55,983 nucleotides of DNA from Endomicrobiia bacterium (GCA_025060535.1 JANXCA010000003.1:1-55983), one strand, 5' to 3'; numbered from the stretch's first letter, positions 31,510 to 55,983 are shown. Numbers and translations: made by a program. The notes: generated by a model not told the origin, from the sequence alone.

Positions 31510-31540
31510 ATTATAGATACCACAAAAAGCAAAAATGTTC
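31510..31540 (-). promoter_or_regulatory. Candidate ECF-type promoter upstream of the anti-sigma gene
   Basis: tGAAC-N19-TCTATAAT between the sigma stop codon and the anti-sigma SD; a similar motif occurs at 50356-50387. Confidence 0.4.
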
Positions 31541-38493: not shown

Positions 38494-40866
38494 TTAATGT
38501 ATGACTAAAATTATTCCTTTTTTATGTGTGGTTTTATCTATATAGAAATAAACTCCTGGTTTTACTAAATTACCATCTCGATCCTTTCCTTCCCACTCTT
38601 TTGTTTTTAGATTTAATTTAAAATCTCCCTTCTGAGAAAATATCTGAATATTATCTGATGGGAAGATTATTTTGTCGTTTATACCATCCTTTTTCAAAGA
38701 CAATAGATAAATTTTGTTGTTAGTAAAACCACTATCAGGGATATTGAAGTTATCATCTAAGTTATCTGGAATATTATCTGTAATATTGTTAACTATAATA
38801 TTAAAATTGAAGTAAGAAGCTTGGTTTCTATTATCATATGCTATTACACTTAATATATATTCACCATTAGGAAAGTCAGCTATATCGATTTGAGGTTGCC
38901 ATATAAATTCAGAAGATGTAATGGAAGTGCTTGCTACTAAGATATTTGAAATGTAAATTTCTATCTTAGTAAGGCCAAAATCATCAGAAACATTAATTGT
39001 TAGATTAATTGTATCTGAAAATGAAGTAGTGGATAAAATCACATCTAAAGAAGGAGGATTATCTCCAGTTATGTTGTTTATGTTTATAGTTATTTGTGCT
39101 ATAACAGTTGTAGTAATAGAAACTCCAACGGCTCTAATAGTATGGGTCCCATTACTATAATCAAAGGTATTTAATATAAATGTGTAAGGAGGATTAATTT
39201 TTGAACCTATAAAGTTATTGTCTAAAAAAAGATCTACTTTGTAAATATCTGTTGATGTTTGAATATAAATTGTCGTGTGACCTGTAAGAGTTTGATTATT
39301 TAAAGGTGAAATTATATTTAGGTAGGTAGTAAAAGAAGACTGTTGAGTATTATTTATTGTGATATTTATTTCTTTTTGTGCTGTTTTATTAGAAGTATCA
39401 TACGCAACTACTCTGAGGACATAATTACCATTTTGGTATAAATTTGTATTCAAGTTGTAGTTAATTGTAGATGTTGAAACCTCTATTAATTTTGTTTGAT
39501 TTATATATAACTCCATCTTTGAAATACCTTTATCATCTGAAGCAGAAGCAGAAACTAAAACAACTCCTGAAACAACTGCGTTGTTAGATGGAGAAGTTAT
39601 ATTTACTGAAGGAGGGCGGTCTATCTGTTGTTGAGAGGTAGAGGAGGTAATAAGAGGTGCCAAGTAGGGTCTTAAGACATCCATCTTCCATTCATGAACG
39701 GAAACCCAGTCATCCTGAAGAATTCCTCCTGTATCACCTGAATTAGGATTAATACACCAAAATGTCCAAGAGTACTTACCTCCCATATATTTCATAAATT
39801 CAGTAAACCAAGTATAAGCTACTGTGTTGGACTGATTTTTAATTCCAAACTCACCTACTAAAAGATGACAAATTCCTTCATCATATATATATCCGAAAAA
39901 TTTGTTCCAAAGAGATGGCATATTATTAGGAAAAGATGGATCACTAAACCATGACTGATTATATACTTCTGGCCCATATTCATGAGGAGAATAAACTAAC
40001 TTCTCGGGTTTAATTAGATTAATTGGTCTATGTCTTACTCCTATAAGATTTCCTCCCCACCAATAAAAATCATTCTGATATTGTTCAACACCTTCAACTA
40101 TTATTAACCAATCAGGATTTACTCGTAAAATTGCATTACCACATCTCTCTGCGGCTGCTGCCCAGTCAGTAGTTTGAGCCCAAGCTGTATAATACTGAGG
40201 AAGCTCATATCCCCAACTTGCGGGCGGCTTCATTCCCATACCAGTGTTTCCATGAGGTTCGTTATCTAAATCAGCTCCGATCACTGTAGGATTACCTTTA
40301 TATCTTTCTGCTAAAAATACCCAATCTGCAATCCATTGCTCCTCAGAAAAATCTTGTGTGTACCAAAGTGTCTCATTCATATATCCATCTGCTTTTCTTG
40401 AGTGATTATCTAATATAATCTTTAATCCATATTTTCCTGCTTCTTCTATTATTTTGTCTAAAACCTGAAGTGGAGTAAGTCCTTCTAAATCCAAGTTAAG
40501 GCCTGTAAATCCTTCTGGTGCTTGTGGGTAAAGCTTAATTCCTTTCTTAGAAGCATAAGCATCATTCCCATAAGCATTAATTTGAATACCTGAGGGAGAT
40601 GTTTTTCTTAACATCTCATTACACCAAGGAATTCTTATACAATTAAAGCCTAAATCTCTAATCTGCATTATCATTGATTTATAGTCTCTCGTCCACAAAC
40701 CATGAGGAGCACAGTTGCCTGTCTCTAAACCAAACCAATTTACTCCTGTAAGACGAACTTCATTGCCATTTTCATCGTAAAGTTTATTACCTATTACTTT
40801 AAGAAATGAAGCTTCTGAAAAAGAAAAAACAAAAATGATTATTAAAAATTTTATCATAAACTTCAT
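38494..40866 (-). CDS. GH5 endoglucanase (GH5_1-like) + 3 Ig-like repeats + CTD
   Basis: LTGVNWFGLET...PHGLW.RDY, GFNCIRIPW, ILDNH, DNEPH (acid/base), WWGGNL, VYSPHEYGP, VGEFG (nucleophile), NPNSGDTGGIL.DDW. C-terminus DGINDKI...WEGKDRDGNLVKPGVYFY. Confidence 0.93.
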   Translation of the reverse strand: MKFMIKFLIIIFVFSFSEASFLKVIGNKLYDENGNEVRLTGVNWFGLETGNCAPHGLWTRDYKSMIMQIRDLGFNCIRIPWCNEMLRKTSPSGIQINAYGNDAYASKKGIKLYPQAPEGFTGLNLDLEGLTPLQVLDKIIEEAGKYGLKIILDNHSRKADGYMNETLWYTQDFSEEQWIADWVFLAERYKGNPTVIGADLDNEPHGNTGMGMKPPASWGYELPQYYTAWAQTTDWAAAAERCGNAILRVNPDWLIIVEGVEQYQNDFYWWGGNLIGVRHRPINLIKPEKLVYSPHEYGPEVYNQSWFSDPSFPNNMPSLWNKFFGYIYDEGICHLLVGEFGIKNQSNTVAYTWFTEFMKYMGGKYSWTFWCINPNSGDTGGILQDDWVSVHEWKMDVLRPYLAPLITSSTSQQQIDRPPSVNITSPSNNAVVSGVVLVSASASDDKGISKMELYINQTKLIEVSTSTINYNLNTNLYQNGNYVLRVVAYDTSNKTAQKEINITINNTQQSSFTTYLNIISPLNNQTLTGHTTIYIQTSTDIYKVDLFLDNNFIGSKINPPYTFILNTFDYSNGTHTIRAVGVSITTTVIAQITININNITGDNPPSLDVILSTTSFSDTINLTINVSDDFGLTKIEIYISNILVASTSITSSEFIWQPQIDIADFPNGEYILSVIAYDNRNQASYFNFNIIVNNITDNIPDNLDDNFNIPDSGFTNNKIYLLSLKKDGINDKIIFPSDNIQIFSQKGDFKLNLKTKEWEGKDRDGNLVKPGVYFYIDKTTHKKGIILVIH

Positions 40867-40869
40867 ATT

Positions 40870-41850
40870 TTAAAAGTTGTAGCCTAAAGATACAAAATGA
40901 TTTTTTTCGTTTAAACTATTAATAATTTTAATAGCATAATCAATAAATATATTTTCTTTTAATATCGCTCCTACTCCAAATGAAAGAAACTCCGTTGGAT
41001 GTTCTTGAGAAATACTTACTTTAGAAAATCCTCCTCTTAAAAAATATTTACTTAAGTATGAAAGTTCTCCTCCCATGGAAAAATATCCATTTGAGGTATT
41101 ACCTATATCAAGGCCAATTTTTATATTTGTAGTCCTGTTAAATTTATATGTATAGTTAACCCCACCTTCGAAACTTAGATTAATAGATTCTTTATATCCT
41201 GTAGACCAAACTGCTGAGGTATTTACTAAATTATTTACTTTAAAGGAAAAACTTAAATAATTTTTTAAAAAATAAGAAAAAGAAATATCCAAAGTCGTTA
41301 CATTTGCAGAAATGTTATTGATTTTACTAAACATATATTTTATAGACCCACCTACGCAAAGGTTTTTAAGAGGTCTTGCTATTGATAAACAAACTACTAA
41401 ATTAGAATTATTGGTTTTTAGTAAATTCTCCTCTTGATATATTATTTCTTCTCCAACATCTTTTATGCCATTTTGGTTTATATCATAAAATTCTAAATTT
41501 GTAGTGTCTAATAAATCTATATCATTATAAAATACACAAATCCCTAAGTTATGAATTTTAGTAGTTTTATAGAAATTTGAATTTTTTGGAGTCTTATATA
41601 AAAAACTTAATGATAAATTATTCAAAATTCCATCTAATACTGAAGAATAAAACACTGAAATTAAATTTTTATCATAAGCCATATTAGATGGATTATTAAA
41701 AATACTATTTACAATATCATCAGATGCTAATGAAGCAACCATTCCTATACTTTTTGCTGAATTTTTTGAAACACTAAGTTCTTCAAAAAAGTTAGAAGCA
41801 AATAATCTAGTTGTGAATAAAATTAAAAACAAGAAGTTCTTACTTTTCAT
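40870..41850 (-). CDS. PorV-like outer-membrane beta-barrel
   Basis: Signal peptide; SAKSIGM...NSIFNNPS; FLRGG; ends HFVSLGYNF (aromatic beta-signal). Confidence 0.7.
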   Translation of the reverse strand: MKSKNFLFLILFTTRLFASNFFEELSVSKNSAKSIGMVASLASDDIVNSIFNNPSNMAYDKNLISVFYSSVLDGILNNLSLSFLYKTPKNSNFYKTTKIHNLGICVFYNDIDLLDTTNLEFYDINQNGIKDVGEEIIYQEENLLKTNNSNLVVCLSIARPLKNLCVGGSIKYMFSKINNISANVTTLDISFSYFLKNYLSFSFKVNNLVNTSAVWSTGYKESINLSFEGGVNYTYKFNRTTNIKIGLDIGNTSNGYFSMGGELSYLSKYFLRGGFSKVSISQEHPTEFLSFGVGAILKENIFIDYAIKIINSLNEKNHFVSLGYNF

Positions 41851-41855
41851 GTTAT

Positions 41856-43754
41856 TTATTCTCCTTCATAAAACATTGCATAGTATCCATAAGCTAAAGC
41901 CATAGCTATCTGTTGCCAAGTTCTATGATATTTATATTTAGGTGGAGGATTTTTTTGATTATATGGACCTTTAGGAGGAAGTGGTTCTCCATAATCAGGC
42001 CTTGTTTCAAAAAATCTCACACCCTCTTTAAGTTCTTTTCCCCAAGGAAAAACTTTTTTTACTCCTTTTGGAAGAGGTACAACTTGCTCCCAAAATCTTG
42101 CGTAATCGGCTCTTTCTTCTTCTGTAACAATACCTTTATCATCTCTATATCTTTCCCACATAATATCTAAAATTTTTTTTGCTATTTGCTGCGCTTCTGG
42201 TTGAGGTTTGTTAAACCATCTTCTGTTAGCTTGATCCCAAAATATCAAACACTTCACAAAAGCTCCTATTAGTCCTACATCTTTTCCATATCCTGTAACT
42301 TTACATTTTAAATCTTTTGGAGAATTATCTGCAGAACCTTCCCAGTCAATCCCTACAGGAATTTCTATATCATTATCTTTCAGTTTCATTTCTTTTAAAG
42401 CCCACTCTTTAAGCCATTTTTCACATATTTTGAATGCTTTTTTGTCTCCTGAAGCATATATGTATTGAAAAACTCTTTCCATCAACCAATACTGCCAACC
42501 CGACCAGGTGTTGCTTGGCGGATCTAAAAATACAGGATGTTGACAATACTGCATACCATAAAAAGGCCCGTTAGGTCTATCCCAATCATTTACCACTCCT
42601 CCACCAATGGCTCCATTTAAAGCTTGACAAAATTCAATAAGCTCTATTTGTCTTTTTAATGATTTATCCCAATCGTCAACTCCTATCTTTGCAAGATAAT
42701 AAGCACCAAGAGGATTTTGATATCCACAATGTATCTGGCTACAACCTATTCTCCAAGCCCATTTCTCATTTAAGGCTGCCCCCCATGCTATATACCAGGA
42801 AATTAAATAATGACAACTATCATAACCTTTACCAGGAGTCCTTCCTGCTCCAATTTTTTTGAAATACTTATCAAACATACAATATCTCAACCAATCTCCC
42901 ATCTCATACATTTTCAATCTATAATCGGATATTTTTCCCCATTTTTGTTGTTTTGCAAACTCTTCAGCCCAGTAAAACGCCTGAGCAACTCTTGCTTCTG
43001 CATCTGGTGCACAAGTATATCTCCACTGAGTTGCATTTGATTGCACAAACAAATCAACGAAACCCTGAGGTTTGTTGGTATAGTTTTCAATAGAAGGATG
43101 AGGAATTGTCTCCCAAGTAGACTCATTAGGTCCTCTTTGGAAAAGATTCACAAACACAGCTCTTTTTCTTCCACCTGAATATTTACTAAATCCATACCAG
43201 TCATCTACATCTAAAAGCCAATGCATAAGATACATCTGATGGCCATATTTGGCTGTAACATCATCAAGAGGATCCATACCCACAGGTTCATCAAAAATCA
43301 CCGGTGCTGGAAACTTATAAGGGTCTAAGTATTCAGGTACGTAAGAAGCGGGTTTATCAAAGTTATACGCGTCCATATTTAATTGTTCTGTCTTTTTATC
43401 TGGAATAAAGTATTTTTCCATTACATACCAAGACTTCTCAAAAGGTTTCCAATCCTTTGTAAAATAAGCATAAAGTACATCTAACCATATTAAAAATGAA
43501 ATTGCCTCACTTGTAGAATGCCGTCCGTAATCGTGTGCTTCTATAATTAATTTTTCAATACTGTGATAAGGAATTCCCTCTTGAGAGATATACCCATTTG
43601 CTGGATCATAGATTTCATTATACAATTCAAGAAACTTCTCCTTATATGATTTTATTCTTTGTTTTTCAGCAGAGATTTTAACTATATTTTCACTTGTGAA
43701 GCTTAAAGAATAATATAGTATTAGAAATAAAATAAAAAAATTTTTTATTTTCAT
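41856..43754 (-). CDS. GH48 cellulase (catalytic module only)
   Basis: EGIPYHSIE.LIIEA.DYG..STSEA, MHWLLDVDDWYGF, FQRGPNESTWETIPHP, QWRYT.APDAEAR, MGDWLRY.MFDKYF, HYLISWY.AWG, GYQNP, YHRTWQQ; signal peptide. Confidence 0.95.
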   Translation of the reverse strand: MKIKNFFILFLILYYSLSFTSENIVKISAEKQRIKSYKEKFLELYNEIYDPANGYISQEGIPYHSIEKLIIEAHDYGRHSTSEAISFLIWLDVLYAYFTKDWKPFEKSWYVMEKYFIPDKKTEQLNMDAYNFDKPASYVPEYLDPYKFPAPVIFDEPVGMDPLDDVTAKYGHQMYLMHWLLDVDDWYGFSKYSGGRKRAVFVNLFQRGPNESTWETIPHPSIENYTNKPQGFVDLFVQSNATQWRYTCAPDAEARVAQAFYWAEEFAKQQKWGKISDYRLKMYEMGDWLRYCMFDKYFKKIGAGRTPGKGYDSCHYLISWYIAWGAALNEKWAWRIGCSQIHCGYQNPLGAYYLAKIGVDDWDKSLKRQIELIEFCQALNGAIGGGVVNDWDRPNGPFYGMQYCQHPVFLDPPSNTWSGWQYWLMERVFQYIYASGDKKAFKICEKWLKEWALKEMKLKDNDIEIPVGIDWEGSADNSPKDLKCKVTGYGKDVGLIGAFVKCLIFWDQANRRWFNKPQPEAQQIAKKILDIMWERYRDDKGIVTEEERADYARFWEQVVPLPKGVKKVFPWGKELKEGVRFFETRPDYGEPLPPKGPYNQKNPPPKYKYHRTWQQIAMALAYGYYAMFYEGE

Positions 43755-43792
43755 TTATTCTCCATTTTTACTTGTGTTATCTTGTATTATCA

Positions 43793-43819
43793 ATTATAAA
43801 ATATAAAAACACTTGTCAA
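43793..43819 (-). promoter_or_regulatory. Candidate promoter for the GH48-barrel-GH5 unit
   Basis: Perfect TTGACA and perfect TATAAT separated by 15 nt; GGAG SD downstream. Confidence 0.5.
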
Positions 43820-43870
43820 TACTTTATTTAATTTAAAAGATAAAAACTTAAAGAAAAGAAAATTTTTTAA

Positions 43871-46003
43871 TTAACTCTCAGGCAAGATTATAAGTTCTTC
43901 AACTTCAAATTCTAACATATCTTTATTAAAAATAGAGTTTTTCTCAAACTTAAGTAAGCTAATAGAATACCTCTTAGAATCAAAAACTAATGAGGTGTTT
44001 TTTTGAGAAAAATCTATCTCTAACTTTATAGGTATATCGAAGTTATTTTTATTTACAATTATTATGTTTATTTTGTCATCAAACTTGTTCGCATATAAAC
44101 TTATATTTTTGTTACTTAAATTAGTTGTGTTCAAAACATAACCTTTATTAAAATTTTCTGAAAAAATTTTGAACACATAATAATTTACATTCTCTTCATC
44201 AGATTCGTTTATCATTCCAAATCCTCCTTCATAATCATTCAGACAAAACTGCATAATATAGTCTACTCCATATTTAGCAGATATTCCATAAATATCAGCC
44301 ATAAACAATGGTCTTACTACATTTGGATAGTTTACTTTTCCCATTGAATCCACATTTATTTCTGTTATCGCTAACTCTAAAGAAGGATTGTATCTTGAAA
44401 TCCATTCATTAAATCTTGGAATTACTCTGGTAATTATGCCTCTTACCTGATTGTAATCATAATAATTTATATATTCTTCATCCCAAAAAGTTCTTGTAGA
44501 TTCTAACATTTTTTCTGTTCCTTGAGGAATAAAATCATATGGATCTTCCCAGTTGATTCTAAATCTTGGATAAATATGAAAAGATACAACATCTATTAAA
44601 CGATATCCTTTAGGATTTTCCTTTTTATTTCTTTCAAATTCAGCACATTTCTTAATTAAATAATCAACTGCTCCTTCACAACCATTGTAAGTTATATCTC
44701 CATAAGTCCCCCAATCTAACCAAGAAGTACATATGGCTGGTGCAAAAATTTTTAAAGGTTTTTTAGATACTTTACTCTGTGCCTCACGCATTGCAATGAC
44801 AAATTTTTTCAACTTCTCAAAGTATTCAGATATGCTTATTGGTTTTTGTTGGACATCTTTGTGTGTAAGATGCCATATGCAAGGCTCATTATCCATTTCA
44901 AAAAATGTTACATCGTATTTTTTTATACCATTCAGATAATAAACTAAATCTGCTGCGTCTTTTTCATCCATACAAAATTCAAAATTGTCATTTTTTTCAT
45001 TAGGTGCATATCCTAACATATTAATCTGAATCAAAGGCTCTGCTCCTATCCTTCTTGAATACTCAACAAACTCATCTATCTTAGGAAGCTCATACACATA
45101 AGTTTCTCCAATAGAAGTGTCTCTATACCTTGAGGTTCTCCAGTTATATCTACTCATTAAGTTTCCACCTGCTCTTAAAACTTTTATATTAAGAGCTTTT
45201 ACTAAGTCCTCATTTGGAAAAGAAAATAACCACATACCCCAGTTAGTTCCGTAAAGATTTGCTGAAATCTTACCATTAGTGTTTTTGTATGGTGGATTAA
45301 AAACTTCATTATAAAAAACTTTAGCTTCTAATGAATAGTTTTTAATAGATTCAGACTTATTAATTGTAATTTTATATTTATTAAAAACATAATCTTTTTT
45401 AGGGTGATATTCCTTACTAAACTGTCTAACAAAAGAAATTTTATCTATATATATAAACCCTTTCTCTCCACTTATTCCAGATTTTGAAAATTCCAAACCA
45501 ACTACTTTGTCTAATTCTACCTCAGGGTTAAAACCTTTGTTTCTTCCTTTCCACCATCCTACTATTTTAAACTTTCTAAAGGGAATTACAATTAATTCCC
45601 AAGAAGTTGAAATTTTTATCACATACTGGTTGTATTTATTAATGTTTAAGTTTTTATCTTTGGTGACTAAATTTATGAGGACATATTCCTTAAAATTTGA
45701 ACTTTTTATTTTAAATTGTAAAGCTTGATAGTCTAAAAGATTAATTGGAGACTCAAAACTTTTTCCAACAGTAGTATAACACCACTCCCATTTGTCTGTT
45801 TTCTGTAGTGAATACTCCCACTTAAGCACATTCTCATTTTCTTCTTTTATAACTTCAGCTTTACAAGTAGAAGCTCCTCCACTAATTTGATCACCTACAA
45901 AATACCAATTTTTAAGTGGTTGATTAAAGTCTTCAATTATAATATCTTGACCAAAAACTATATTAAAAAACATTAATATAAACAAAAACATTAATATAAA
46001 CAT
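43871..46003 (-). CDS. CBM11/CIA30-like module + GH44-like endoglucanase/xyloglucanase
   Basis: Signal peptide; IIEDF...W..IVIPF..F...IYIDKISF (CBM-like jelly roll); R.GGN.MSRYNW, MDNEPCIWHLTH (acid/base), DVVSFHIYP, TRTFWDEEY, LAITE (nucleophile). No CTD. Confidence 0.8.
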   Translation of the reverse strand: MFILMFLFILMFFNIVFGQDIIIEDFNQPLKNWYFVGDQISGGASTCKAEVIKEENENVLKWEYSLQKTDKWEWCYTTVGKSFESPINLLDYQALQFKIKSSNFKEYVLINLVTKDKNLNINKYNQYVIKISTSWELIVIPFRKFKIVGWWKGRNKGFNPEVELDKVVGLEFSKSGISGEKGFIYIDKISFVRQFSKEYHPKKDYVFNKYKITINKSESIKNYSLEAKVFYNEVFNPPYKNTNGKISANLYGTNWGMWLFSFPNEDLVKALNIKVLRAGGNLMSRYNWRTSRYRDTSIGETYVYELPKIDEFVEYSRRIGAEPLIQINMLGYAPNEKNDNFEFCMDEKDAADLVYYLNGIKKYDVTFFEMDNEPCIWHLTHKDVQQKPISISEYFEKLKKFVIAMREAQSKVSKKPLKIFAPAICTSWLDWGTYGDITYNGCEGAVDYLIKKCAEFERNKKENPKGYRLIDVVSFHIYPRFRINWEDPYDFIPQGTEKMLESTRTFWDEEYINYYDYNQVRGIITRVIPRFNEWISRYNPSLELAITEINVDSMGKVNYPNVVRPLFMADIYGISAKYGVDYIMQFCLNDYEGGFGMINESDEENVNYYVFKIFSENFNKGYVLNTTNLSNKNISLYANKFDDKINIIIVNKNNFDIPIKLEIDFSQKNTSLVFDSKRYSISLLKFEKNSIFNKDMLEFEVEELIILPES

Positions 46004-46023
46004 ATATAAAATTTATCTCCTTT

Positions 46024-49000
46024 TTATTTTAAAACATAAATAACTCCATAAGTAATATTATTAGAATTCATCTTTTTAATTGAATATAAATAAAATCCAC
46101 TTCTTACATAATCTCCATTTATAGTCTTTCCATCCCATTTATTTTGATGGGTAGTTTGATATACTAACTCCCCTTTAACATTATAGATTTTTAATTCTTC
46201 TATATATTCGCCAAATTCTATTACATTGTTAATGTTATCTTCGTCTAATGTCAGAACTATTTTATCTTTTATATTATCTACTATAAACTCTATTATTTCA
46301 AAAGAAACTTGACCGGAGTTATCATAACTTATAATTTTTAACTGATGTAAACCATCAGACAAAAGTTGAGTATTATAATTAAACACATAAATTCCTGAAG
46401 AGGCAAAAGTAGTATAGGTTTCTACCAATTTCTCATCAATAAGAAATTCTATTTTTACTACTTTATAGTCATCTAAGAATATAACTTCTGTAGTTAAAAC
46501 TCCAGATATTCTTATACCATTACTCAAACCTGTAAGGATTATTTGGGGTTTTTCATCTTGATTAGAAATAGTAATTATTATTGTCTTTTCTGCTAAGTTA
46601 TTAGCTATATCAGATGCTTTCGCAGTCAATATATATAGAGCATTTGGATAATTTTTAGTATTTAATGAAAAAATCAAAGATGTTGTAGGCGTTGATATAT
46701 TTAAAATTTCTTCATTGTTTGAATTTAGCATTTTCAACTCTAAAAAAGATAAAGAATTTACATCATACGCTTCTATTTGGAAACTACAAATGCTTGAAAC
46801 AACTGAATTGTTTGTTGGAGTTACAAAGTTTATTGTAGGAGGTGTATTGTCTATTATTAGATTTTTAACGATTGTTGTAGATTGTGTTAGGGAATCATAT
46901 ATTTTTATACTAATTTGAAAATTACCATCGCTAAACTTTGTAGTGTCTAATTCATATTCATAAGAAAAATTGTCGGAAGTGATGTTAAATGAGGAAATAA
47001 AATTATTATTATGATAGATCCATAAAGAATTTAATAATTTATCATCTTTTGCTTGAATTTGTATTTGGACTTTTTTTGAAAGTATACTATGAGTGGATTT
47101 AACTATAATTGCTCCCTCGGGTGGCTTATCATTTGTATTATTTATAATTACTTCTAAAGAAGTTTTAGAAAAATTATTAACTTTATCATAGATGATAAAT
47201 TCTAATAAATATCTCCCATCTGGATAATTAGTAGTATGCCAAAGTAGAGAATAAGGAGGATAAGTTGATATTTGAGTTAAAGAGTTATTTATATAAAATT
47301 CTATTTTTTCTATACTAAAGTTATCCGTAGCCGAAAGGTTAATTTTTATGGTTCCAGAAACAATCTGATTATTGTATAAATTTATATTTGTAATTGTTGG
47401 TGATTGATTGTCTACATATACAACTACTTGTTTAGATACAGAATTTCCAATTTTGTCATAAGCAGTAATTCTTATAGTTGAGGTAGAGGAAAATTGATTA
47501 GTGTTCCATAAGTACAAAAAGTAAGTAGAACTTTGTTGAAGGTCTTTTGTCAATATTAGATTTGAATTAATAAAAACTTCAAATTTTGAAAGTAAATAAT
47601 TGTCAGACGCAGAAAAAGAAATCGTAGAAATTTTTGAAACATATGAGAAATTAAGTGGAAATTCTATTGTTAAGTGTGGTGATGTATTATCAATTATAAC
47701 ATTTACAACACTAAAAGTTGACTGTCCTACAGTATCATAGACAATAACACCAATTTTATGCTGTGCGTCTTGAAGTAAAGTGGTATTAATAGAATAACTA
47801 AATGGATATGAAGTCTTAGTAGAAACACATACATCATTTATGTAATATTCTATCTTTGAGATTCCTTTGTCATCAGAATAAACTAAAGGCACCAAAATAG
47901 TTCCAGAAATTATTTGATTTTCATAAAGCAACAATCTACAGCTGGGAGGATCATCTATGTTGTCAAAGTAAACAATGTATTCAACTTGAGATGTTTGATT
48001 TTGAGTATCATAAGCTATAGATTTTATAGTATGTCTTCCATCCGAATATAAGGATGTGTTTAAAGTGTAGCTTAAAGATGTGGTATTATTAAATGTAGTA
48101 TTATTAACTAAATAAAGCAAGCTATTATCTAAGTAAAGTTCTATTTTTGATATACCTCTATCATCTGAAGCTAAAACTTGAATATTTATTGTAGCTTGTA
48201 ATGTAGTAGCATTCTGGAGATTAACAAAACTAACACTTGGAGGTGAATCTATGTTGTCAACATAAACTTTTAATTGTTGTTGAGTAGAGAGGTTGTCTGT
48301 ATCATATACTACAATCTTTAATGTATATTCTCCATCAGAATAACTCTGTGTGTTCCAAGTATATGAATAAGGTGGTGAGGTTTTTGTATAAATGTTAACA
48401 TTATTTATATAAAACTCAACCTTTGTTATTCCTACATCATCAGTAGCTGAAACTGTTATATTTACTGTTCCCTGTACTGTAGAACCATTTATAAGTGATA
48501 TTGATTGGATTGTAGGAGGTTCTTTAGTGTTGTTGACTATTACCCACACTTTTTTTGTATCGCTTGAACCAGAATTAGTATAACCTACAACTTTAAGCTC
48601 ATATCCACCATCTGAATCTTGAGTTGTATTCCAAAGCCAACTATATGGTGAGGTTGTGTCTGTAGATCTTAAAACATTGTTTACATAAAACTCCACTCTA
48701 TTTACTGTATTTGCTGTATATACATTCACAACTACATTAGTACTTCCTTCTACTATACTTCCTGAAGAAGGATTTACAATATATAAATTTATCGTATCTG
48801 ATGTAGCCCAAAGATTAGGAAAATTTCCTGTAATAACTAATAAAGTTAACACTCTTAAGGAATCGTTATAATAATTATTTGGTATAAAATTTGCAAGTTT
48901 ATTATACAAACTATTAAGCCAACTTTGCAAACTACTATCACACATAGCAGCTACTGCAAAAGGTCCTACAAAAGCAGCGTTATTCCACTGACCGATAGTG

Positions 49001-49962
49001 TTCCCATTTAACTGATAACCATCCCTTATGTTTTCAGGTTTTCCTCCCGTAGTAGAGTTAATCCAATTAGATAGTTTTTTAAGATGGTTATATGCCACTT
49101 GACTTCCAAACCATAAATAGTCCACACCATACCTCCAAGGAAATCTACACGCGTCATATTTATAATCATAAGAATACCAAGAAGCTTGTGCACCTGATGC
49201 TTGACACCAATCAGGAACTAATCCTGTTTGGTAGTTGTTATAAAAATAGTTTGTAATATCATAGCATTTGTTAACAACATTATTCCAAGCAGAATTACCT
49301 GTTGCTGAAGCAAAAACTTTATACCAAGCAGGAGCAAAATAACTAGGATTAGTTACATTTGAACCTCCCCAAACATCTCCTGGTTTCAACACAAAAGTGT
49401 TTGCTTCTACACAGTACTGCATTAAAGCAGAAATTATAGTTTGTGCCTCTTGTAGATAATTTATAGCACCACTACTACCCCATTGTCTATGTGCAAACAA
49501 CAAAGCTAAAGCAACATCTTCATCAGCATCTGTTGCTGCATTTTGACCAACAACATTACCATTTGCATCTATCCTCCAGTGCATTAAGTTCCTTCCATCA
49601 TTATAGTGTTTATAATATCTAAATAAGCCATCAAAATATCCTTTGGTGCTGTCATTTGCATCGGTCATCATTACAGTAATAAGCATTCCATATCCTATAC
49701 CTTCAGATACTGTATCATTTCCATCCTCAGGTCTTTTTACCCGCCACATGTTTGACTGGGGACAACCATCTTGAGTTAGATAATTCTTCCAATTATTATA
49801 AGCAGTCAAAACTGCATTATTCATCTCAGCTTGGGAGACATTATTTGGTTTTATCCCGTAAGGATAATTTACAGATTGTGGAAAAGGAAAGTTTGCTGAA
49901 AACAAATAAGAACTAAAAAGAACCACTATAACAAATAAAAATTGTTTTGTTGTTTTTTTCAT
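46024..49962 (-). CDS. GH8 endo-beta-glucanase (CelA-like) + 9 Ig-like repeats + CTD
   Basis: DTVSEGIGYGM, LMHW, NAATDADEDVALALLFAHRQWG, LKPGDVWGG..VTNPSYFAPAWY, TGLVPDWC, YDACRFPWR. C-terminus KIYNVKGELV...WDGKTINGDYVRSGFYLY...GVIYVLK. Confidence 0.93.
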   Translation of the reverse strand: MKKTTKQFLFVIVVLFSSYLFSANFPFPQSVNYPYGIKPNNVSQAEMNNAVLTAYNNWKNYLTQDGCPQSNMWRVKRPEDGNDTVSEGIGYGMLITVMMTDANDSTKGYFDGLFRYYKHYNDGRNLMHWRIDANGNVVGQNAATDADEDVALALLFAHRQWGSSGAINYLQEAQTIISALMQYCVEANTFVLKPGDVWGGSNVTNPSYFAPAWYKVFASATGNSAWNNVVNKCYDITNYFYNNYQTGLVPDWCQASGAQASWYSYDYKYDACRFPWRYGVDYLWFGSQVAYNHLKKLSNWINSTTGGKPENIRDGYQLNGNTIGQWNNAAFVGPFAVAAMCDSSLQSWLNSLYNKLANFIPNNYYNDSLRVLTLLVITGNFPNLWATSDTINLYIVNPSSGSIVEGSTNVVVNVYTANTVNRVEFYVNNVLRSTDTTSPYSWLWNTTQDSDGGYELKVVGYTNSGSSDTKKVWVIVNNTKEPPTIQSISLINGSTVQGTVNITVSATDDVGITKVEFYINNVNIYTKTSPPYSYTWNTQSYSDGEYTLKIVVYDTDNLSTQQQLKVYVDNIDSPPSVSFVNLQNATTLQATINIQVLASDDRGISKIELYLDNSLLYLVNNTTFNNTTSLSYTLNTSLYSDGRHTIKSIAYDTQNQTSQVEYIVYFDNIDDPPSCRLLLYENQIISGTILVPLVYSDDKGISKIEYYINDVCVSTKTSYPFSYSINTTLLQDAQHKIGVIVYDTVGQSTFSVVNVIIDNTSPHLTIEFPLNFSYVSKISTISFSASDNYLLSKFEVFINSNLILTKDLQQSSTYFLYLWNTNQFSSTSTIRITAYDKIGNSVSKQVVVYVDNQSPTITNINLYNNQIVSGTIKINLSATDNFSIEKIEFYINNSLTQISTYPPYSLLWHTTNYPDGRYLLEFIIYDKVNNFSKTSLEVIINNTNDKPPEGAIIVKSTHSILSKKVQIQIQAKDDKLLNSLWIYHNNNFISSFNITSDNFSYEYELDTTKFSDGNFQISIKIYDSLTQSTTIVKNLIIDNTPPTINFVTPTNNSVVSSICSFQIEAYDVNSLSFLELKMLNSNNEEILNISTPTTSLIFSLNTKNYPNALYILTAKASDIANNLAEKTIIITISNQDEKPQIILTGLSNGIRISGVLTTEVIFLDDYKVVKIEFLIDEKLVETYTTFASSGIYVFNYNTQLLSDGLHQLKIISYDNSGQVSFEIIEFIVDNIKDKIVLTLDEDNINNVIEFGEYIEELKIYNVKGELVYQTTHQNKWDGKTINGDYVRSGFYLYSIKKMNSNNITYGVIYVLK
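46272..48800 (-). repeat. Nine tandem ~90-aa bacterial Ig-like repeats within the GH8 gene
   Basis: Recurring (D)xPP.V....NG..VSG.I.I...A.DD.GI.K.E.Y.N...W/LNT..Y.DG.Y.L....YD..N...V.VDN units; boundaries approximate. Confidence 0.8.
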
Positions 49963-50339
49963 CTTTTTTTCTTACCCTTTTTGGGAACAACTATAATTTT
50001 TTCATTATGATGAAAATGTCTGTGTTTTATTTTTTCTTTCCAACCATAAGGTAATTTAATAATAACTGAGGGTACATATTTAACATCTATCATTATCCAA
50101 GGTTTTGAAAGATCCTTTGTCCTCCACCAGTATCCATCATAATAACAAAACCAAAAACCGTCAAAGTAAAAAACTTCAAAGTCATCAAAATTAGATACAT
50201 ACATAACAGTGGTATCTGGAATTACTACCAGTTTAGGAGTGATTATTAATTTTGGTGGCGTTTTTATTTTTATTTTAATTTTTGAACTTATAAGAGTTAA
50301 ACCTACTAATAAAAAAATAAAAAATCTATAAATTTTCAT
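49959..50339 (-). CDS. Small secreted/membrane aromatic-rich hypothetical protein
   Basis: GAGG SD; hydrophobic N-terminus; VVIPDT.V.Y...FYFDGFWFCYYDGYWWR...PW...VP..IIKLP; basic/His tail. Its stop overlaps the GH8 start (ATGA). Confidence 0.7.
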   Translation of the reverse strand: MKIYRFFIFLLVGLTLISSKIKIKIKTPPKLIITPKLVVIPDTTVMYVSNFDDFEVFYFDGFWFCYYDGYWWRTKDLSKPWIMIDVKYVPSVIIKLPYGWKEKIKHRHFHHNEKIIVVPKKGKKKR

Positions 50340-50355
50340 ACATCAACCTCTTTAT

Positions 50356-50387
50356 ATTATAGACTACTTTAACTAAACCAAAGGTTC
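50356..50387 (-). promoter_or_regulatory. Candidate ECF-type promoter for the small protein-GH8-GH44 unit
   Basis: gGAAC-N20-TCTATAAT just upstream of the SD; no sigma70 -35 at the appropriate distance. Confidence 0.4.
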
Positions 50388-50397
50388 CCAAAAAATA

Positions 50398-53300
50398 CTA
50401 CTTCACTACTACTATGTTTCCTGTTTGGAAGGTACCATCTTTGAATTTACACTTATAAATATATAAACCTGGTTTTAGCTTCCTACCAGACTCATCCTTG
50501 CCATCCCATATTAAAACTTGCTTTATTTCTCTTACGAGTTTACCTTTTATATTGTAAATCTTTATCTCCTCAATTTCCTTATCAGATTTAAAATCTATTA
50601 TTTCATTTTCTTGATCTTCATTTAGACTTAAAAAATACTTCTTTTTTAGTTTGTGTTCTACTTGAGAGTAAGAAAAGTTTATATTTACTGAGAAAGTTCC
50701 AACTTGATTTACTGTATCATATACTAAAACTACTAAATTATAGCTACCTTGTGGATAATTTGCAGGATTTATCACAAAACTATATGGTGAAAAAGTAGAA
50801 GTGTAAACTAAACTTTCATTAAGATAATACTCAACTTTTATTATTTCATCATCTGTTTCTATATTAGGAATTAACTCAACAGAAGAAGTGATTGTCATAC
50901 CTGAAAAAATACCAGAAAAAGTAACAGATGGAGGTGTGTTCCCTACTACATTATTTACTACTACCGCAATTATTTTAGTAGAAGTTTGATTTTTAGTATC
51001 AGTTGCCTCTATTTTTATCTCGTATATACCGTTAGGATCTAAAGTAGTATTCCAAGAATACCTAAGATAAGACACTAAAGTTGAGGTTGATAAATCTATA
51101 AGCACTAAATTATTCTTAGATACCTTCAGCGAAGTTATTCCAAAATCATCTTGGGCAACTATATCTAAATAAACCTCTCCACTTATTGTTTGACCATTTA
51201 TTAAATTACACCAAATTTCAGGTAAATTATCTTGTTGTGGAGCAGTGGAAGTAATAATTTCAAAGTTTGCTATTATCGTTTTTGTTGAATCAATTATTAT
51301 TACAACTGGATTTGAGCTACTTTGGACATCTCCTGACCAATTTAAGAACTTATAACCTTGAGTTGCTGTAGCATAAAGTTGGACTTGTTCTCCTTTAAGA
51401 TATAGTTGCTTATTTGGATATTTAGTAATACTTCCTGAATTTTGAGGATTTACCTGAGTATATAAAGGATAATAAGGATTATTTACTGTAACAGTAATCT
51501 GTGCTGTTGTTGATTGATTAAGTGTATCATATGCAATCACTTTTATATAGTGTGTTCCATTAGTAGTAGAGGTGGTATACCAAATAAATTCATATGGAGA
51601 TAAATTATCTGTATAAAAAAGTGAGTTATCTATATAAAACTCTACTTTTGATACTCCAAAATCATCAGAAACTGTTGCTTTTACAGCTACTGTTGAAGAA
51701 ACTACAGAGTTGTTTATAGGAGAAACAATTGTAACAGTTGGTGGATTATCTACAATCTGTGTTGACTCTGTTGTAGAAACTTCAACTTCATACCATAAAG
51801 TTTGGTAAATATGCGAAAGTGTAAATTTTGCTTTGTTGTTTTCTACAGTAATAGGTAAAACTGTTTTTCTTGCACCAGTGTTATCTAAAGCATAAACTTT
51901 AACTCTTGAAGCTAAGTACGGTAAAACAATCTCACAGTTTATTCCTTCAACAAATGAAGGAGAACTTCCCCATTGATTTCCTACTGTTATATTTTGGTTT
52001 GCGGGTGGCGGAAAAGACACAGGAGTGTTAGGATAAATCCTCCAGTTCATACCTGGATTTCCACAAGCACCTAACGCAGTAATTAAAATTTGCCCTGTAG
52101 TTGTGTTTGAATTTAATTCTGTAAATGTCTTACCATCAAGAGAGTTTAATGTAATTGTTGCCCATTTATTTTGTAAAGAATTTACATTTCTTATTGTTAT
52201 ACCATCTGAAAGATGATATTCTGAATTCTGTAAGTAACCTACTAAAAACTTAGCTTTAGGTGCATCACCTATTAAAACACCATTTGCTGTATCCCATTTT
52301 AGTTCTCCTGTGTCTGATTGATAGAAGTTATTAGAAGGAATTTGAACTTGTGAAGGTGTAAGATAATTTGATGGTTGAGTTCCCCCTTCTACTATCATAG
52401 CGGTTTTATGAAGAAGAGATATTCTTCTATTTAATCCCTTATCATCTGCGTGTATTAATCTCCATGCCCAAGTGTTTAGTGCTTGAGTTATTTCATCTTG
52501 TTTTGTAACATTGACAATAACATAACTTCCATTAGAGGCTGAAATATCTCCCCTACGATAAATCAAAGCTGCAGGAATAAAAGAAAGGAATTGAACAGGA
52601 TGCTGGTGTAAATCAAAGTATCCAGTAATTCTGCGTGTATCAAAGCTTGTGTTATGAGAATATGTATATCCAAAAATTCCATCCCAATCATGGAATGCTG
52701 CATATGCAGAAAGAATTATATAACACTCAGCAGAAAAGGTATTAGGTGCAGGATGGTTGTATTCTGTGATAGTAAAAGGTTTTCCAAAAACCCTTCTTGT
52801 AGCAATCTCTGAAATTGTTCCACCATTTAAATCTTTTACCAAAGTCGCATTAGTAACATACCAGTTATTGGGGTCCCAAGAAGTGCCAGGAAACACAGGA
52901 TGATGCCAATAAGAATGTGTATCTACAAAGTCAAGTTTTGACATTATGTTTGGGACAGAAGTTAGTCCAACAGTGGTGCCAGTAATTACACCTTTTATTC
53001 CTACGGTATTTTTTAAGTAGTTATACATTTCTAACCAAAAATTCTCTTCAAGTTGATACAAAAATTCAACCCAATCTCTTTGTGCTCTTTGAGTTCTTAT
53101 ATTTCTTTCCTGATACTTTATTATATTTATCGTTTTATTATCTAAGTTCTCTCCAGGAAGCAATCCCACATTACCACCCGGTTTAAAGGAGATGTTACTA
53201 AACCAATATGTAGCAAGCTCCTTACACATATCTGTAAAATTTACTCTTGCATTATTATCATCAGTAGATACAGTTAGTTCAAAATTAAATAGTTGATAAT

Positions 53301-54459
53301 AAGTTGTAAGATTTATTGTCCTGTCAAACCCTAAAATATACCAGGGATCGTGTGCTTGACCTATTTGGACTCTAATTGAGATGTTTCTGTCTGCTTTTGC
53401 ATAAAAAGATAAAGTATAAGGACGAGTAGAAGATACTACTAAATTTGGTTGATTAAACTGAATATGCCAAGAGGTAGGAGATGTATTTTGTATCGTTATC
53501 TTTACTGCCCTTTCATTATTAGGGCCTTCATTTACAATAGTAAAAGAAGCTCTTGCAACATCATGCTGTTCTCTGTTCCAATATGTAAAACCTTCTGAAA
53601 AATCTGCATTTCTTAACATCTCCTGACCTAACGGCTCAGAAAGAGCCCAACCAGAAGAAATTAAGTTTGAATGTGTTTGGTATTTGTTTGTAAGCCAATT
53701 GTTCCATTTCTGTCTTAAATCATTAGAAAACTCGGAAGGTAAAATATCTATAGTACCATCTAACCATCCTTGAATTAAACCATGCTCATTTATTATCTCA
53801 ACCATTGCAATAGCTGGTTCGTTGTTATAGTAAGTGCTTGTATAAGGATTCAATCTTGTAAGTAAATTATAAGCGTATTCTTTTTGCAGCTCTATCATTG
53901 GTTGATAGAACATAGCAGGAACTTGTTTTTGTTTCCAATCAAGTTGATTAATAGAATTTGGGAGACCATCACCAGGCATAAAGTTGCGTCCAACAACTAA
54001 GTTTATATTAACATATATACCGTTTTCTTTAAGTTTCGCAATAAAATAATCAAGACGATCTAAAGCCTCTTGATTAAAACTTCTTGTGTTTGTATAAGTC
54101 CCTGCATAACCAAAAATAGAATAACCCCAAGGGTTATCTAAAAAATGTAGTCTTGCAATATTTACTCCAAATTTAGCAAGCCGCTTTGCAACCTGCTCTG
54201 CTTGAGTTTTTAAAGGAAAACATGCATCAGAAGTAAAATTTACACCCAAAAACTTTATCCTTTCTTGTCCAACATAAAAATGTCCATCCTGACCAACAGA
54301 AACAAATCCATACTTACCAGCAGGTTTATGATTTAACCAGCTTACATCTACAACTGTATTTGAGGAATCATCCCAGGGAAGATAAAAATAAAACGTTTGA
54401 GAAAAAAGTGGTATAATCCAAAAAATAAAAAAACAAAAACTTTTTAAAAATTTTTTCAT
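50398..54459 (-). CDS. Clan GH-A hydrolase with inserted CBM4-like module (GH148-like) + Ig repeats + B-repeat-like domain + CTD
   Basis: KPAGKYGFV...GHF...IKFLGVN, RLAKFGVNIARLH, LDRLDYFIAKLKENGIY, EIINE (acid/base); inserted LRNADFSEG...WHIQFNQ...YTLSFYAKA CBM4-like module; DTHSYWHHP, PFTITEYNH (nucleophile); C-terminus KIYNIKGKLVREI...WDGKDESGRKLKPGLYIY...GNIVVVK. Confidence 0.75.
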   Translation of the reverse strand: MKKFLKSFCFFIFWIIPLFSQTFYFYLPWDDSSNTVVDVSWLNHKPAGKYGFVSVGQDGHFYVGQERIKFLGVNFTSDACFPLKTQAEQVAKRLAKFGVNIARLHFLDNPWGYSIFGYAGTYTNTRSFNQEALDRLDYFIAKLKENGIYVNINLVVGRNFMPGDGLPNSINQLDWKQKQVPAMFYQPMIELQKEYAYNLLTRLNPYTSTYYNNEPAIAMVEIINEHGLIQGWLDGTIDILPSEFSNDLRQKWNNWLTNKYQTHSNLISSGWALSEPLGQEMLRNADFSEGFTYWNREQHDVARASFTIVNEGPNNERAVKITIQNTSPTSWHIQFNQPNLVVSSTRPYTLSFYAKADRNISIRVQIGQAHDPWYILGFDRTINLTTYYQLFNFELTVSTDDNNARVNFTDMCKELATYWFSNISFKPGGNVGLLPGENLDNKTINIIKYQERNIRTQRAQRDWVEFLYQLEENFWLEMYNYLKNTVGIKGVITGTTVGLTSVPNIMSKLDFVDTHSYWHHPVFPGTSWDPNNWYVTNATLVKDLNGGTISEIATRRVFGKPFTITEYNHPAPNTFSAECYIILSAYAAFHDWDGIFGYTYSHNTSFDTRRITGYFDLHQHPVQFLSFIPAALIYRRGDISASNGSYVIVNVTKQDEITQALNTWAWRLIHADDKGLNRRISLLHKTAMIVEGGTQPSNYLTPSQVQIPSNNFYQSDTGELKWDTANGVLIGDAPKAKFLVGYLQNSEYHLSDGITIRNVNSLQNKWATITLNSLDGKTFTELNSNTTTGQILITALGACGNPGMNWRIYPNTPVSFPPPANQNITVGNQWGSSPSFVEGINCEIVLPYLASRVKVYALDNTGARKTVLPITVENNKAKFTLSHIYQTLWYEVEVSTTESTQIVDNPPTVTIVSPINNSVVSSTVAVKATVSDDFGVSKVEFYIDNSLFYTDNLSPYEFIWYTTSTTNGTHYIKVIAYDTLNQSTTAQITVTVNNPYYPLYTQVNPQNSGSITKYPNKQLYLKGEQVQLYATATQGYKFLNWSGDVQSSSNPVVIIIDSTKTIIANFEIITSTAPQQDNLPEIWCNLINGQTISGEVYLDIVAQDDFGITSLKVSKNNLVLIDLSTSTLVSYLRYSWNTTLDPNGIYEIKIEATDTKNQTSTKIIAVVVNNVVGNTPPSVTFSGIFSGMTITSSVELIPNIETDDEIIKVEYYLNESLVYTSTFSPYSFVINPANYPQGSYNLVVLVYDTVNQVGTFSVNINFSYSQVEHKLKKKYFLSLNEDQENEIIDFKSDKEIEEIKIYNIKGKLVREIKQVLIWDGKDESGRKLKPGLYIYKCKFKDGTFQTGNIVVVK

Positions 54460-55588: not shown

Positions 55589-55983
55589 TTAATTACATTA
55601 ATCGTACCAAATAATTTTTGATTATCTGTTGTTGTAATTTTGTATATATAAAAACCTAAATTTAACTTATCATTTAAACTCAACAAAAATGGAGATTCTT
55701 CAATGACTTTCAATATCTTACCTTTGATATCAAATATTTCTACTTTTAATATATTGTCACTTACTAAACTTGAAAAGTCTATACTGGGTTGAGTACTGCT
55801 TAAAATATTGTGCCGGTTCTTATAAATATTTTGATCTGTAGATTGTCCGCCATCATTTTGATTTTGTGAGGGTGGATTATAAACTATAACTTCAATCTGT
55901 AGGTAACCTGATTGACTGTTATTGTCGTAAGCTATTATTTTTATAAAATATGTAGCATTTGAGTATTCCAAAGTATTCCAATT
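55585..55983 (-). CDS. 3' end of a further secreted Ig-repeat protein with a divergent CTD (5'-truncated by the window edge)
   Basis: The frame is open to the window end (NWNTLEYSNATYFIKIIAYDNN.., same Ig repeat type as the GH genes). Ends KVEIFDIKGKILK...LNLGFYIYKI...GTINVIK. Confidence 0.8.
   Translation of the reverse strand, partial: NWNTLEYSNATYFIKIIAYDNNSQSGYLQIEVIVYNPPSQNQNDGGQSTDQNIYKNRHNILSSTQPSIDFSSLVSDNILKVEIFDIKGKILKVIEESPFLLSLNDKLNLGFYIYKITTTDNQKLFGTINVIK

Follow-up and report, generated by a model that had tools for sequence, protein, structure and literature searches.

A conserved, putatively cellulolytic gene cluster with C-terminal tags and PorV-like barrels in small-genome Endomicrobiia

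How does a bacterium of a phylum that has been treated as one of sugar fermenters with few glycoside hydrolases (GHs) (PMC11481507, PMC7031533) come to carry a row of beta-glucanase genes, and by what means would their products be brought to cellulose? The question is raised by a stretch of 55,983 nucleotides from an Endomicrobiia bacterium (GCA_025060535.1 JANXCA010000003.1:1-55983), called the window in what follows, which is the complete contig C169 of the genome bin G000 (1.91 Mb, 235 contigs, 88% complete, 1.9% contamination, 28% GC) and which holds between positions 38494 and 54459 the genes for enzymes of families GH5, GH48, GH44 and GH8 and for a GH148-like enzyme. A sequence-only reading of this DNA had placed the host "probably" in the Elusimicrobiota, a phylum not known for the degradation of cellulose. 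The placement can now be made without the qualifier, since genomes of the same genus (g1) are classed as Endomicrobiia or Elusimicrobia, and the description of the phylum agrees with the available parts of the literature, in which the Elusimicrobiota have a very low GH content (PMC11481507), a camel-rumen bin has four GHs (PMC6071333), and the Elusimicrobia are largely without the cellulase machinery (PMC7031533) that genus g1 possesses. No mention of cellulases was found by a term search of the available text of a comparative paper on Endomicrobia (PMC11257099), and the full-text literature, with supplementary CAZyme tables not covered, held nothing tying Elusimicrobiota or Endomicrobia to GH48, cellulolysis or the type IX secretion system (T9SS).

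The answer favored here is that the genes probably constitute a conserved cellulase operon of thermophilic, small-genome Endomicrobiia, that the operon is part of a genome-wide system for the use of cellulose, and that its tagged enzymes would be displayed at the cell surface. Whatever in this account goes beyond gene content and the conservation of motifs is inference, and appreciable room for the alternatives remains; these are taken up below, each with the evidence that bears on it.

A row of five genes, all on the minus strand, encodes beta-glucanases with predicted Sec signals and, by their motifs, intact catalytic residues. The sequence-only reading had held as much, and is borne out by Pfam and PDB matches, motifs and signal-like N-termini. 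The GH48 exoglucanase (41856-43754, 632 aa), which consists of a signal peptide and a catalytic domain only, matches PF02011 with 646.8 bits (cutoff 25) over profile positions 1-619 of 619 and can be aligned with CelS over its whole length (8zu1, E 4.5e-172). Its motifs TSEA (E83) and APDAE (D251) are both aligned to CelS and invariant in a ten-member alignment; from the work on Cel48F and CelS we take E83 to be the catalytic acid and D251 the base. Across the genus this is the best-conserved gene of the cluster (92, 87 and 79% identity). The GH5 endoglucanase (38494-40866, 790 aa) combines a PF00150 domain (154 bits) and the motifs NEPH (E203) and GEFG (E339) with three Big_7 repeats and a C-terminal domain (CTD; aa 711-790, window 38497-38736), which was recognised, here and below, using a model of our own built from the C-termini of window proteins (E 8e-15); its closest solved relative is the actinobacterial E1 of Acidothermus (1ece, E 1e-99). 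The GH8 endoglucanase (46024-49962, 1312 aa; PF01270, 202 bits), with its motifs VSEG, TDADED and KYDACR present, has C. thermocellum CelA as its closest solved relative (1cem, E 9e-98) and carries seven Big_7 repeats and a CTD (aa 1226-1312, window 46027-46287; E 2.6e-18). It also matches CHU_C, a Pfam domain named after Cytophaga hutchinsonii, with 28.1 bits against a cutoff of 27. The GH44 glucanase (43871-46003, 710 aa) is divergent: the PF12891 match, though above its cutoff at 67 bits, extends only over profile positions 93-221 of 223, the PDB relatives are weak (3fw6, E 3e-17), and the top NCBIfam match is the exopolysaccharide (EPS) enzyme EpsB. The motifs DNEP and ITEIN are retained, an N-terminal CIA30/CBM11-like module is present (CIA30, 41 bits), and neither Ig repeats (Pfam) nor a CTD (own model) were found.

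The fifth enzyme (50398-54459, 1353 aa) shows in Pfam a CBM4_9 match at aa 280-408, three Big_7 repeats, Flg_new_2 and a CHU_C match of 26.1 bits, short of the cutoff of 27, and its catalytic halves match no Pfam model. It is predicted to be a GH-A barrel split by an inserted CBM4_9 module (aa 275-427), which lies between E225 (IINEH) and E566 (ITEYN), and it ends in a CTD (aa 1266-1353, window 50401-50664). The characterised GH148 enzyme EngU (Angelov et al. 2017, PMC5725463) has 905 residues and a GH-A barrel that a CBM4 interrupts at 293-430, likewise between its catalytic glutamates, E239 in INNEN and E581 in VTEYN, which are the counterparts of E225 and E566. The protein P0157, also of 905 aa, has INNEN at E239 and VTEYN at E581, exactly the EngU positions, and aa 30-880 of the window protein are 43% identical to it over 99%. 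The label "GH148-like" stands because motifs, spacing of the binding module and identity to P0157 all agree with EngU; by these sequence marks the split barrel, the CBM4 insert and both glutamates of GH148 are in place. Unlike EngU, the protein continues for ~450 extra C-terminal residues, comprising the three Big_7 repeats, Flg_new_2 and the CTD. Its relatives are found in Armatimonadota, Acidobacteriota, Fervidibacteria, Goldbacteria and others, and the Goldbacteria homolog P0178 carries CHU_C and CIA30.

From 33650 to 55983 every open reading frame (ORF) lies on the minus strand, with intergenic gaps of -4 to 172 b. In the direction of transcription the order is a GH9 tail cut by the edge of the window, an aldo/keto reductase (54632-55588, minus strand, 318 aa), the GH148-like enzyme, a 126-aa protein, GH8, GH44, GH48, a 326-aa barrel, GH5, an fn3-rich protein, a 475-aa barrel and an extracytoplasmic function (ECF) sigma factor. 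A hydrophobic, signal-like N-terminus is found on all secreted candidates, the five beta-glucanases included. Scans for promoters and terminators returned chance levels (115 where 113 were expected, and 7 where 7.2 were), and the operon boundaries are therefore drawn from gap sizes only. The gene list of the sequence-only reading for 38494-54459 had omitted two genes, those of the 326-aa barrel and the 126-aa protein. The sixth, edge-cut Ig/CTD protein that it counted in is real, but it lies outside that span, beyond the aldo/keto reductase gene. What remains of it in the window (55585-55983, minus strand) is a C-terminal end with a CTD (own model, E 8e-14; Por_Secre_tail/TIGR04183, 24.7 bits against a cutoff of 23), which shares 60% identity, across 132 aa, with the C-terminal end of a GH9 protein of 990 aa that G005, another genome of the genus, encodes at this position, and is probably the tail of a GH9 cellulase.

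The cluster is a real locus, and the contig is not chimeric. From 20118 to the high end of the window, 21 of 21 compared ORFs are collinear with G005, where the comparison covers the first 40 kb of a 254-kb contig and takes in SmpB and other housekeeping genes, at identities of 43-92%. The order GH8-GH44-GH48-GH5-fn3-barrel is retained in G004, and GH148-like-126aa-GH8-GH44-GH48 in G002, as far as its contig end. The idea that the contig was mis-binned, or joined from the DNA of another organism, could appeal to the fragmentation and the 1.9% contamination of the bin and to the GC of the cluster, which lies in the upper part of the genome range (the total GC of the GH48 gene is at the 97th percentile). 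It is scarcely credible in the face of the collinearity with a same-genus contig that carries housekeeping genes, of the presence of the cluster in four separately assembled genomes of the genus, and of same-kind CTD and PorV-like genes on many G000 contigs. The concern about a chimera that had accompanied the sequence-only reading is thereby put to rest.

Where did the enzymes come from? The sequence-only reading spoke of clostridial-type modules grafted onto Ig stalks and export tags, and a recent horizontal import of catalytic modules from a clostridial cellulosome, fused to local Ig and CTD modules, would be the strong form of that proposal. The nearest solved structure of the GH8 enzyme is indeed clostridial, the best named relatives of the GH48 enzyme, at 45-46% identity, belong to Acetivibrio and Caldicellulosiruptor, and some of its nearest relatives (P0004, P0005, P0008) bear dockerins or CBM3. 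The trait is moreover confined to one subclade of one genus and was therefore gained at some point. Against a recent import, however, the best GH48 match outside the genus is only 49% identical, and in a scan of genome contigs no named genome outside the genus exceeded 43%. GH48 trees were built with FastTree (105 rows) and with an IQ-TREE quick search (44 rows), with composition warnings on the low-GC rows. In both, a clade with support of 100 comprises four groups, of which one is the operon GH48, one another type of GH48 that occurs in the genus (in G002 and G005, ~1090 aa, bearing Big_7 and a tag), and two consist of metagenome proteins; the trees do not settle the branching among these groups. 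This clade stands apart from the named Bacillota, Actinomycetota, Verrucomicrobiota, Bacteroidota, Myxococcota, Acidobacteriota and Chloroflexota. In the approximately unbiased (AU) test, a single clade of operon and paralog GH48 was not rejected (p 0.39), so that a single acquisition is neither shown nor excluded. The GC at third codon positions (GC3) of the cluster genes (0.18-0.23) is host-like (G000 mean 0.173, sd 0.032). Because of the separate deep clade and this host-like GC3, a recent clostridial donor of GH48 is not indicated. Of the grafting proposal, the part that concerns GH8 stands, and the part that concerns GH5, with its Acidothermus relative, the GH148-like enzyme, whose relatives are not clostridial, and the deep-branching GH48 does not. 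A recent import is thus a distinctly improbable origin, and we infer from these sequence comparisons that the enzyme genes are old residents of the subclade.

The host appears to be a very AT-rich thermophile. Reverse gyrase marks thermophiles, and a full-length reverse gyrase gene (1217 bits) is found at G000:C209:2489-5950 and also in G001 and G002; it is this gene, together with a GC content of only 28%, that leads to the description. "Hot springs metagenome" is the label of the three sequencing runs, from two studies, in which at least half of the words sampled from the DNA occur, and one of the three is possibly its source. Among the runs listed as containing this DNA, none was of RNA.

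The distribution of the genes connects the cluster with others in the same genomes. GH48 was found in 4 of 401 sampled genomes of the phylum, all of them among the 8 of genus g1, and in 0 of 2 from the other genera of the family. The four GH48 genomes have 7, 9, 4 and 8 GH9 matches and each a GH94 phosphorylase; G001, at 98% completeness, has 2 GH9 matches and no GH94, and G003, G006 and G007 have no GH9 match. On contig C153 of G000 the order is a solute-binding protein (SBP), a GT2 glycosyltransferase, the GH94 phosphorylase, two ATP-binding cassette (ABC) transporter permeases, two GGDEF proteins and three GH9 enzymes. Other secreted enzymes encoded in G000 include one more GH5, one more GH8, two GH9 with a CTD, a GH16/GH114 protein and a CBM3-fn3-PKD protein. 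The sequence-only reading had named GH9, cellodextrin transporters and phosphorylases as genes worth seeking elsewhere; GH9, GH94 and ABC transporter genes are there, and its notion of a distinct cellulolytic strategy is supported at the level of gene content.

Two observations stand beside this distribution. The two GGDEF diguanylate cyclase genes of contig C153 (G000:C153:7575-10234, L114) lie between the GH94/ABC genes and the three GH9 genes, a placement that may link cyclic di-GMP signalling to cellulase expression or attachment. And G021, from another family of the class (2.2 Mb, 79% complete), has 15 GH5 matches with no GH48 and no GH9, and may represent a second, independent polysaccharide-degrading lineage of Endomicrobiia.

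Is the substrate cellulose at all? The enzymes could be directed mainly at soluble or amorphous beta-glucans, such as mixed-linkage glucan, xyloglucan, chitosan and the cellulose-like exopolymers of microbial mats or bacteria, in which case the organism would be a glucan scavenger and not a primary degrader of crystalline plant cellulose. EngU, the characterised GH148 enzyme, prefers mixed-linkage glucans (PMC5725463), solved relatives of GH44 include xyloglucanases, with an EPS enzyme as the top NCBIfam match here, and those of GH8 include chitosanases and xylanases; the single CBM3 seen lies outside the cluster; and a hot-spring Elusimicrobia single-cell genome, enriched ~500-fold on cellulose particles, was read by its authors as that of a binder or cross-feeder (PMC7031533). 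Set against this are the co-occurrence of GH48, seven GH9 matches and GH94 with its adjoining ABC transporter in exactly the same four genomes, the fact that GH48 is the best conserved of the cluster genes, and the nearest solved relatives of GH5 and GH8, E1 and CelA, which are true cellulases. Scavenging of soluble glucans is in our judgement rather unlikely, and a cellulose-directed system the better reading of the gene set.

The gene set resembles the catalytic complement of the clostridial cellulosome (CelS, CelA, GH5, GH9, GH44) in its families and in having GH48 as the single conserved exoglucanase. It differs in having no dockerin, cohesin or scaffoldin, in joining its catalytic domains to Big_7 repeats and a CTD or to nothing, in its diderm host and in the deep clade of its GH48. 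Dockerin (PF00404) and cohesin (PF00963) were found in 0 of 5 genomes of the genus, with controls matched, and not in the cluster; SusD (PF07980) was likewise found in 0 of 5, with the B. thetaiotaomicron control matched. No TonB-receptor or SusD domains occur in the window, and no genome-wide search for SusC was made. By these domain searches the locus is neither a cellulosome nor a polysaccharide utilization locus of the Bacteroidota type. The sequence-only reading had reported the absence of dockerins, cohesins, CBM3 and SusCD. For dockerin, cohesin, CBM3 and SusD this holds in the cluster, and elsewhere in G000 a CTD protein does bear a CBM3 (L016, 25.4 bits against a cutoff of 22.4).

How the enzymes would be held where they are needed is suggested by their C-termini and by the barrels encoded among them. 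The CTD occurs at the extreme C-terminus of 32 ORFs of G000, among them the GH148-like enzyme, GH8, GH5, the fn3-rich protein and the edge ORF and, outside the window, two GH9, the second GH5, the second GH8 and the CBM3 protein. PorV-like ORFs in G000 number 20 by our own model, with 18 matches by a curated one, and the PorV/PorQ model NF033709 is matched above its cutoff in 5 of 5 genomes of the genus; by these family matches the outer-membrane shuttle PorV of a T9SS is present. A PorV-like gene lies directly downstream, on the same strand, of 10 of the 32 CTD genes, as against 19 of 1774 for all genes. The PorV family was found, at E <= 1e-10, in 143 of 151 sampled Elusimicrobiota genomes, often with at least 13 matches each, and the system of barrel and tag is therefore taken to be native to the Elusimicrobiota and not to have been imported with the cellulases.

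Two barrels belong to the cluster. That of 326 aa (40870-41850, minus strand), encoded between GH48 and GH5, finds no direct match by phmmer against the PDB, nor in Pfam or NCBIfam, and has five relatives below 1e-30 among 1.84 billion representatives. Its homolog alignment has 26 members, the protein itself included, and 24 of them match NF033709; the AlphaFold model of the protein is a beta-barrel with a predicted local distance difference test (pLDDT) score of 87.8, for which the best Foldseek matches are chain F of the T9SS translocon, 8gl6 (1e-10) and 6h3i (4e-9), followed by FadL-type barrels. By family and predicted fold the protein is PorV-like. The second barrel (32208-33635, minus strand, 475 aa) is PorV/PorQ-like by our own model (E 8e-28); the curated PorV_fam model gives 54 bits (E 1.8e-14), below its cutoff of 90, and PorP_SprF 41.8 bits. 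An Ig domain resembling the CTD lies inside it (aa 333-435) and a zinc ribbon, CxxC...CxxC, at its C-terminus, a combination that is invariant in G005 and G004 and unusual for an outer-membrane protein. Upstream of it is encoded the fn3-rich secreted protein (33650-38326, minus strand, 1558 aa), with three fn3 domains, Pur_ac_phosph_N and a CTD (aa 1463-1558, window 33653-33940; E 2.5e-19). It is conserved in G005 and G004, and no catalytic domain was recognised in it by Pfam, a homolog search of aa 25-450 being uninformative. A complex of this CTD with the 475-aa barrel was predicted with a score of 0.86, against 0.01 for the best control; of the solved complexes 58 of 80 come up to this mark, and of the mismatched pairs 2 of 110. 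At least 95% of contacts are shared between runs, and the partners have a pLDDT of at least 84. Because a PorV-CTD complex (8gl6) has already been solved, the prediction is to be taken as likeness and not as binding.

In Bacteroidota, type B CTD proteins are held at the surface by PorP/SprF (Gorasia et al. 2022, PMC9143113), and the arrangement in G000, with tagged cargo genes followed by a barrel gene and a proposed non-covalent anchoring at the surface, resembles it by analogy. It differs in that the barrels belong to the PorV/PorQ family and not clearly to PorP/SprF, and in that the tags score below the type B cutoff. The CTD might instead be a transient export signal that is cleaved, as the type A CTDs of Bacteroidota are removed after export (PMC9143113), so that the enzymes would be freed into the medium or onto vesicles and the barrels would serve for shuttling or uptake; the type A and type B models match about equally weakly, and more than two thirds of the CTD genes have no barrel gene beside them. 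This reading appears unlikely, given that only the C-terminal part of the PorU model, and no catalytic region of a PorU-type sortase, was detected, and that cargo-barrel pairing is so strongly enriched. The predicted interface between CTD and barrel passes its controls, perhaps by likeness to the solved complex, and the long Big_7 stalks would fit display away from a surface.

The course of events under the favored reading, that of a conserved operon with surface-displayed enzymes, would then be as follows. The endoglucanases (GH5, GH8, GH148-like, and GH9s encoded elsewhere) carry Big_7 spacers and a T9SS-like CTD with a predicted beta-sandwich fold; they would cross the outer membrane, possibly via a distant SprA-like barrel, after which the CTD would stay docked on PorV/PorQ barrels, which are often encoded beside the cargo gene. 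Docking would hold the enzymes at the cell surface in the way that type B CTD proteins are held on PorP/SprF in Bacteroidota, with no part for dockerins, cohesins or SusCD. The untagged GH48 and GH44 might act in the periplasm on imported chains or be released by another route, and cellodextrins would enter through the ABC transporter and be split by the GH94 phosphorylase encoded beside the three GH9 genes.

Several findings weigh against this reading. The sequence-only reading had put Ig stalks and CTD tags on the enzymes, which is right for GH148-like, GH8 and GH5; GH48, the key enzyme for crystalline cellulose, with no Ig repeats (Pfam) and no CTD (own model), has neither, and nor has GH44. 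The 326-aa barrel adjoins this untagged GH48 rather than a CTD gene and is missing from the cluster of G004, and 22 of the 32 CTD genes have no adjoining barrel gene. The CTD of the 1353-aa protein falls below the NCBIfam cutoffs (TIGR04131, 22.8 against 35; TIGR04183, 21.9 against 23). GH8, GH44 and GH148 are families that also include chitosanases, xyloglucanases and mixed-linkage glucanases (PDB titles, PMC5725463), and G000 is fragmented, with 235 contigs at 88% completeness. Then there is the export apparatus. In 4 of 5 genomes the SprA model TIGR04189 finds an ORF of 1733 aa piecewise, by two to three collinear matches of which the best reaches 45 bits where the cutoff is 200; this ORF has no Pfam match and no PDB sequence match. 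GldL and GldM were found in 0 of 4 genomes of the genus, where the Tenacibaculum control gave 437 bits for GldM and 200 for GldL. No GldK rose above cutoff in 5 genomes, with only a 41-bit fragment in G004. The PorU model NF033707 is matched only over about profile positions 876-1095, its own C-terminal part, by many CTD proteins, and no catalytic region was detected. The CTD system, export tags in the sequence-only reading, fails several tests of membership in the T9SS. Apart from the PorV barrels, the T9SS is at best barely recognisable with these models, and the system of tag and barrel is not classed as one.

A bolder version takes the missing motor at face value: a subclade of thermophilic Endomicrobiia of 1.4-1.9 Mb would be primary cellulose degraders that display their endoglucanases on the outer membrane by means of a motor-less relative of the T9SS, made up of a T9SS-like tag at the C-terminus, a distant pore of the SprA type and a large family of PorV/PorQ barrels acting as cargo-specific docks. 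PorV barrels would in that case be an outer-membrane stand-in for the cellulosome scaffold, and the untagged GH48 and GH44 would finish the work in the periplasm or else on the barrel whose gene adjoins GH48. This version can be advanced only tentatively, with the balance tilting against it.

Several observations made in passing touch the same subject. The presence of PorV throughout the phylum, together with the absence of GldL and GldM in four genomes of the genus, points to a widespread motor-less system of tags and barrels. At 2553-6474 in the window, the gene of a 628-aa protein that joins FliG middle and C-terminal domains to TPR repeats stands beside those of a PorV-TPR fusion barrel (4454-6040, 97.9 bits) and of a protein of 148 aa consisting of hardly more than a CTD (6028-6474); it is odd that a domain resembling that of a rotor switch should accompany barrel and tag genes in a lineage in which no GldLM motor was found. 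At G000:C110:21868-26559 an 848-aa GH9 ORF with no CTD detected is followed by two PorV-like barrel genes, and this untagged GH9 with its barrels mirrors the untagged GH48 and barrel of the window.

Among known cellulose degraders the closest likeness is to C. hutchinsonii and Fibrobacter succinogenes, which are diderm and non-cellulosomal, have many GH5, GH8 and GH9 enzymes and domains of the CHU_C/Por_Secre_tail type, and may employ a periplasmic step for untagged enzymes. The differences lie in the phylum, the 1.4-1.9 Mb genome, the thermophily and the lack of any detected GldK, GldL or GldM. To our knowledge C. hutchinsonii is without GH48. The same is stated of F. succinogenes in the available text of PMC6071333, whereas in the genomes studied here GH48 is present and highly conserved. 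A further likeness is offered by Candidatus Goldbacteria "Cellulosimonas argentiregionis", an uncultured hot-spring anaerobe of a neighbouring phylum, found on cellulose particles and furnished with many CBM-bearing cellulases (Doud et al. 2020, PMC7031533).

The remaining genes of the neighbourhood are less easily given a part. The small 126-aa protein (49959-50339, minus strand), whose gene overlaps the start of GH8 by 4 b, has a hydrophobic segment at the N-terminus, then a core rich in aromatic residues, and ends in a basic tail. It has no Pfam or NCBIfam match and no paralog in G000, and is conserved at the same place in G005 (75%) and G002 (55%). The ECF-type sigma factor (31539-32093, minus strand, 184 aa; Sigma70_r2 and r4_2), found at the same position in G005 with 79% identity, is a candidate regulator by its position only. 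Between it and an adenylate/guanylate cyclase gene lies a 542-aa ORF (29861-31489) with no Pfam match, a GC at the 97th percentile and 78% identity in G005, which is by position only a candidate anti-sigma or sensor protein. Farther off, a sigma-54 activator gene (27156-28333, a 310-aa ORF) is seemingly frameshifted near 27335-27410, where the tblastn match to the 453-aa ortholog of G005 changes frame and runs on as far as residue 393; the gene is either wrongly assembled here or a pseudogene. At 20118-25848 stands a BatA/VWA/DUF58 gene set of the aerotolerance type, and upstream of it, at 15486-20118, lie in tandem three paralogs of a TMEM260-like O-mannosyltransferase, of which two have TPR tails.

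Non-cellulosomal cellulases displayed by means of a CTD are a known kind, and what is new here is the unexpected phylum in which they would occur. If the favored reading of a conserved, surface-displayed cellulase operon is true, a new phylum would join the short list of likely degraders of crystalline cellulose, and the genomes in question would be among the smallest, at less than 2 Mb (judged against the genome sizes of cultured cellulolytic bacteria), to hold GH48, about seven GH9, GH5, GH8, GH44, GH148 and GH94 with its ABC transporter; they would also be a source of thermophile-derived cellulases of unusual architecture. The locus further provides a natural case in which to learn how T9SS-like tags and PorV barrels operate without the known motor, and because PorV-family genes occur in nearly all of the sampled genomes of the phylum, the question of tag and barrel reaches past cellulases. 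Should the motor-less version hold, the cellulose-bound hot-spring Elusimicrobia recovered by particle sorting could be degraders and not bystanders.

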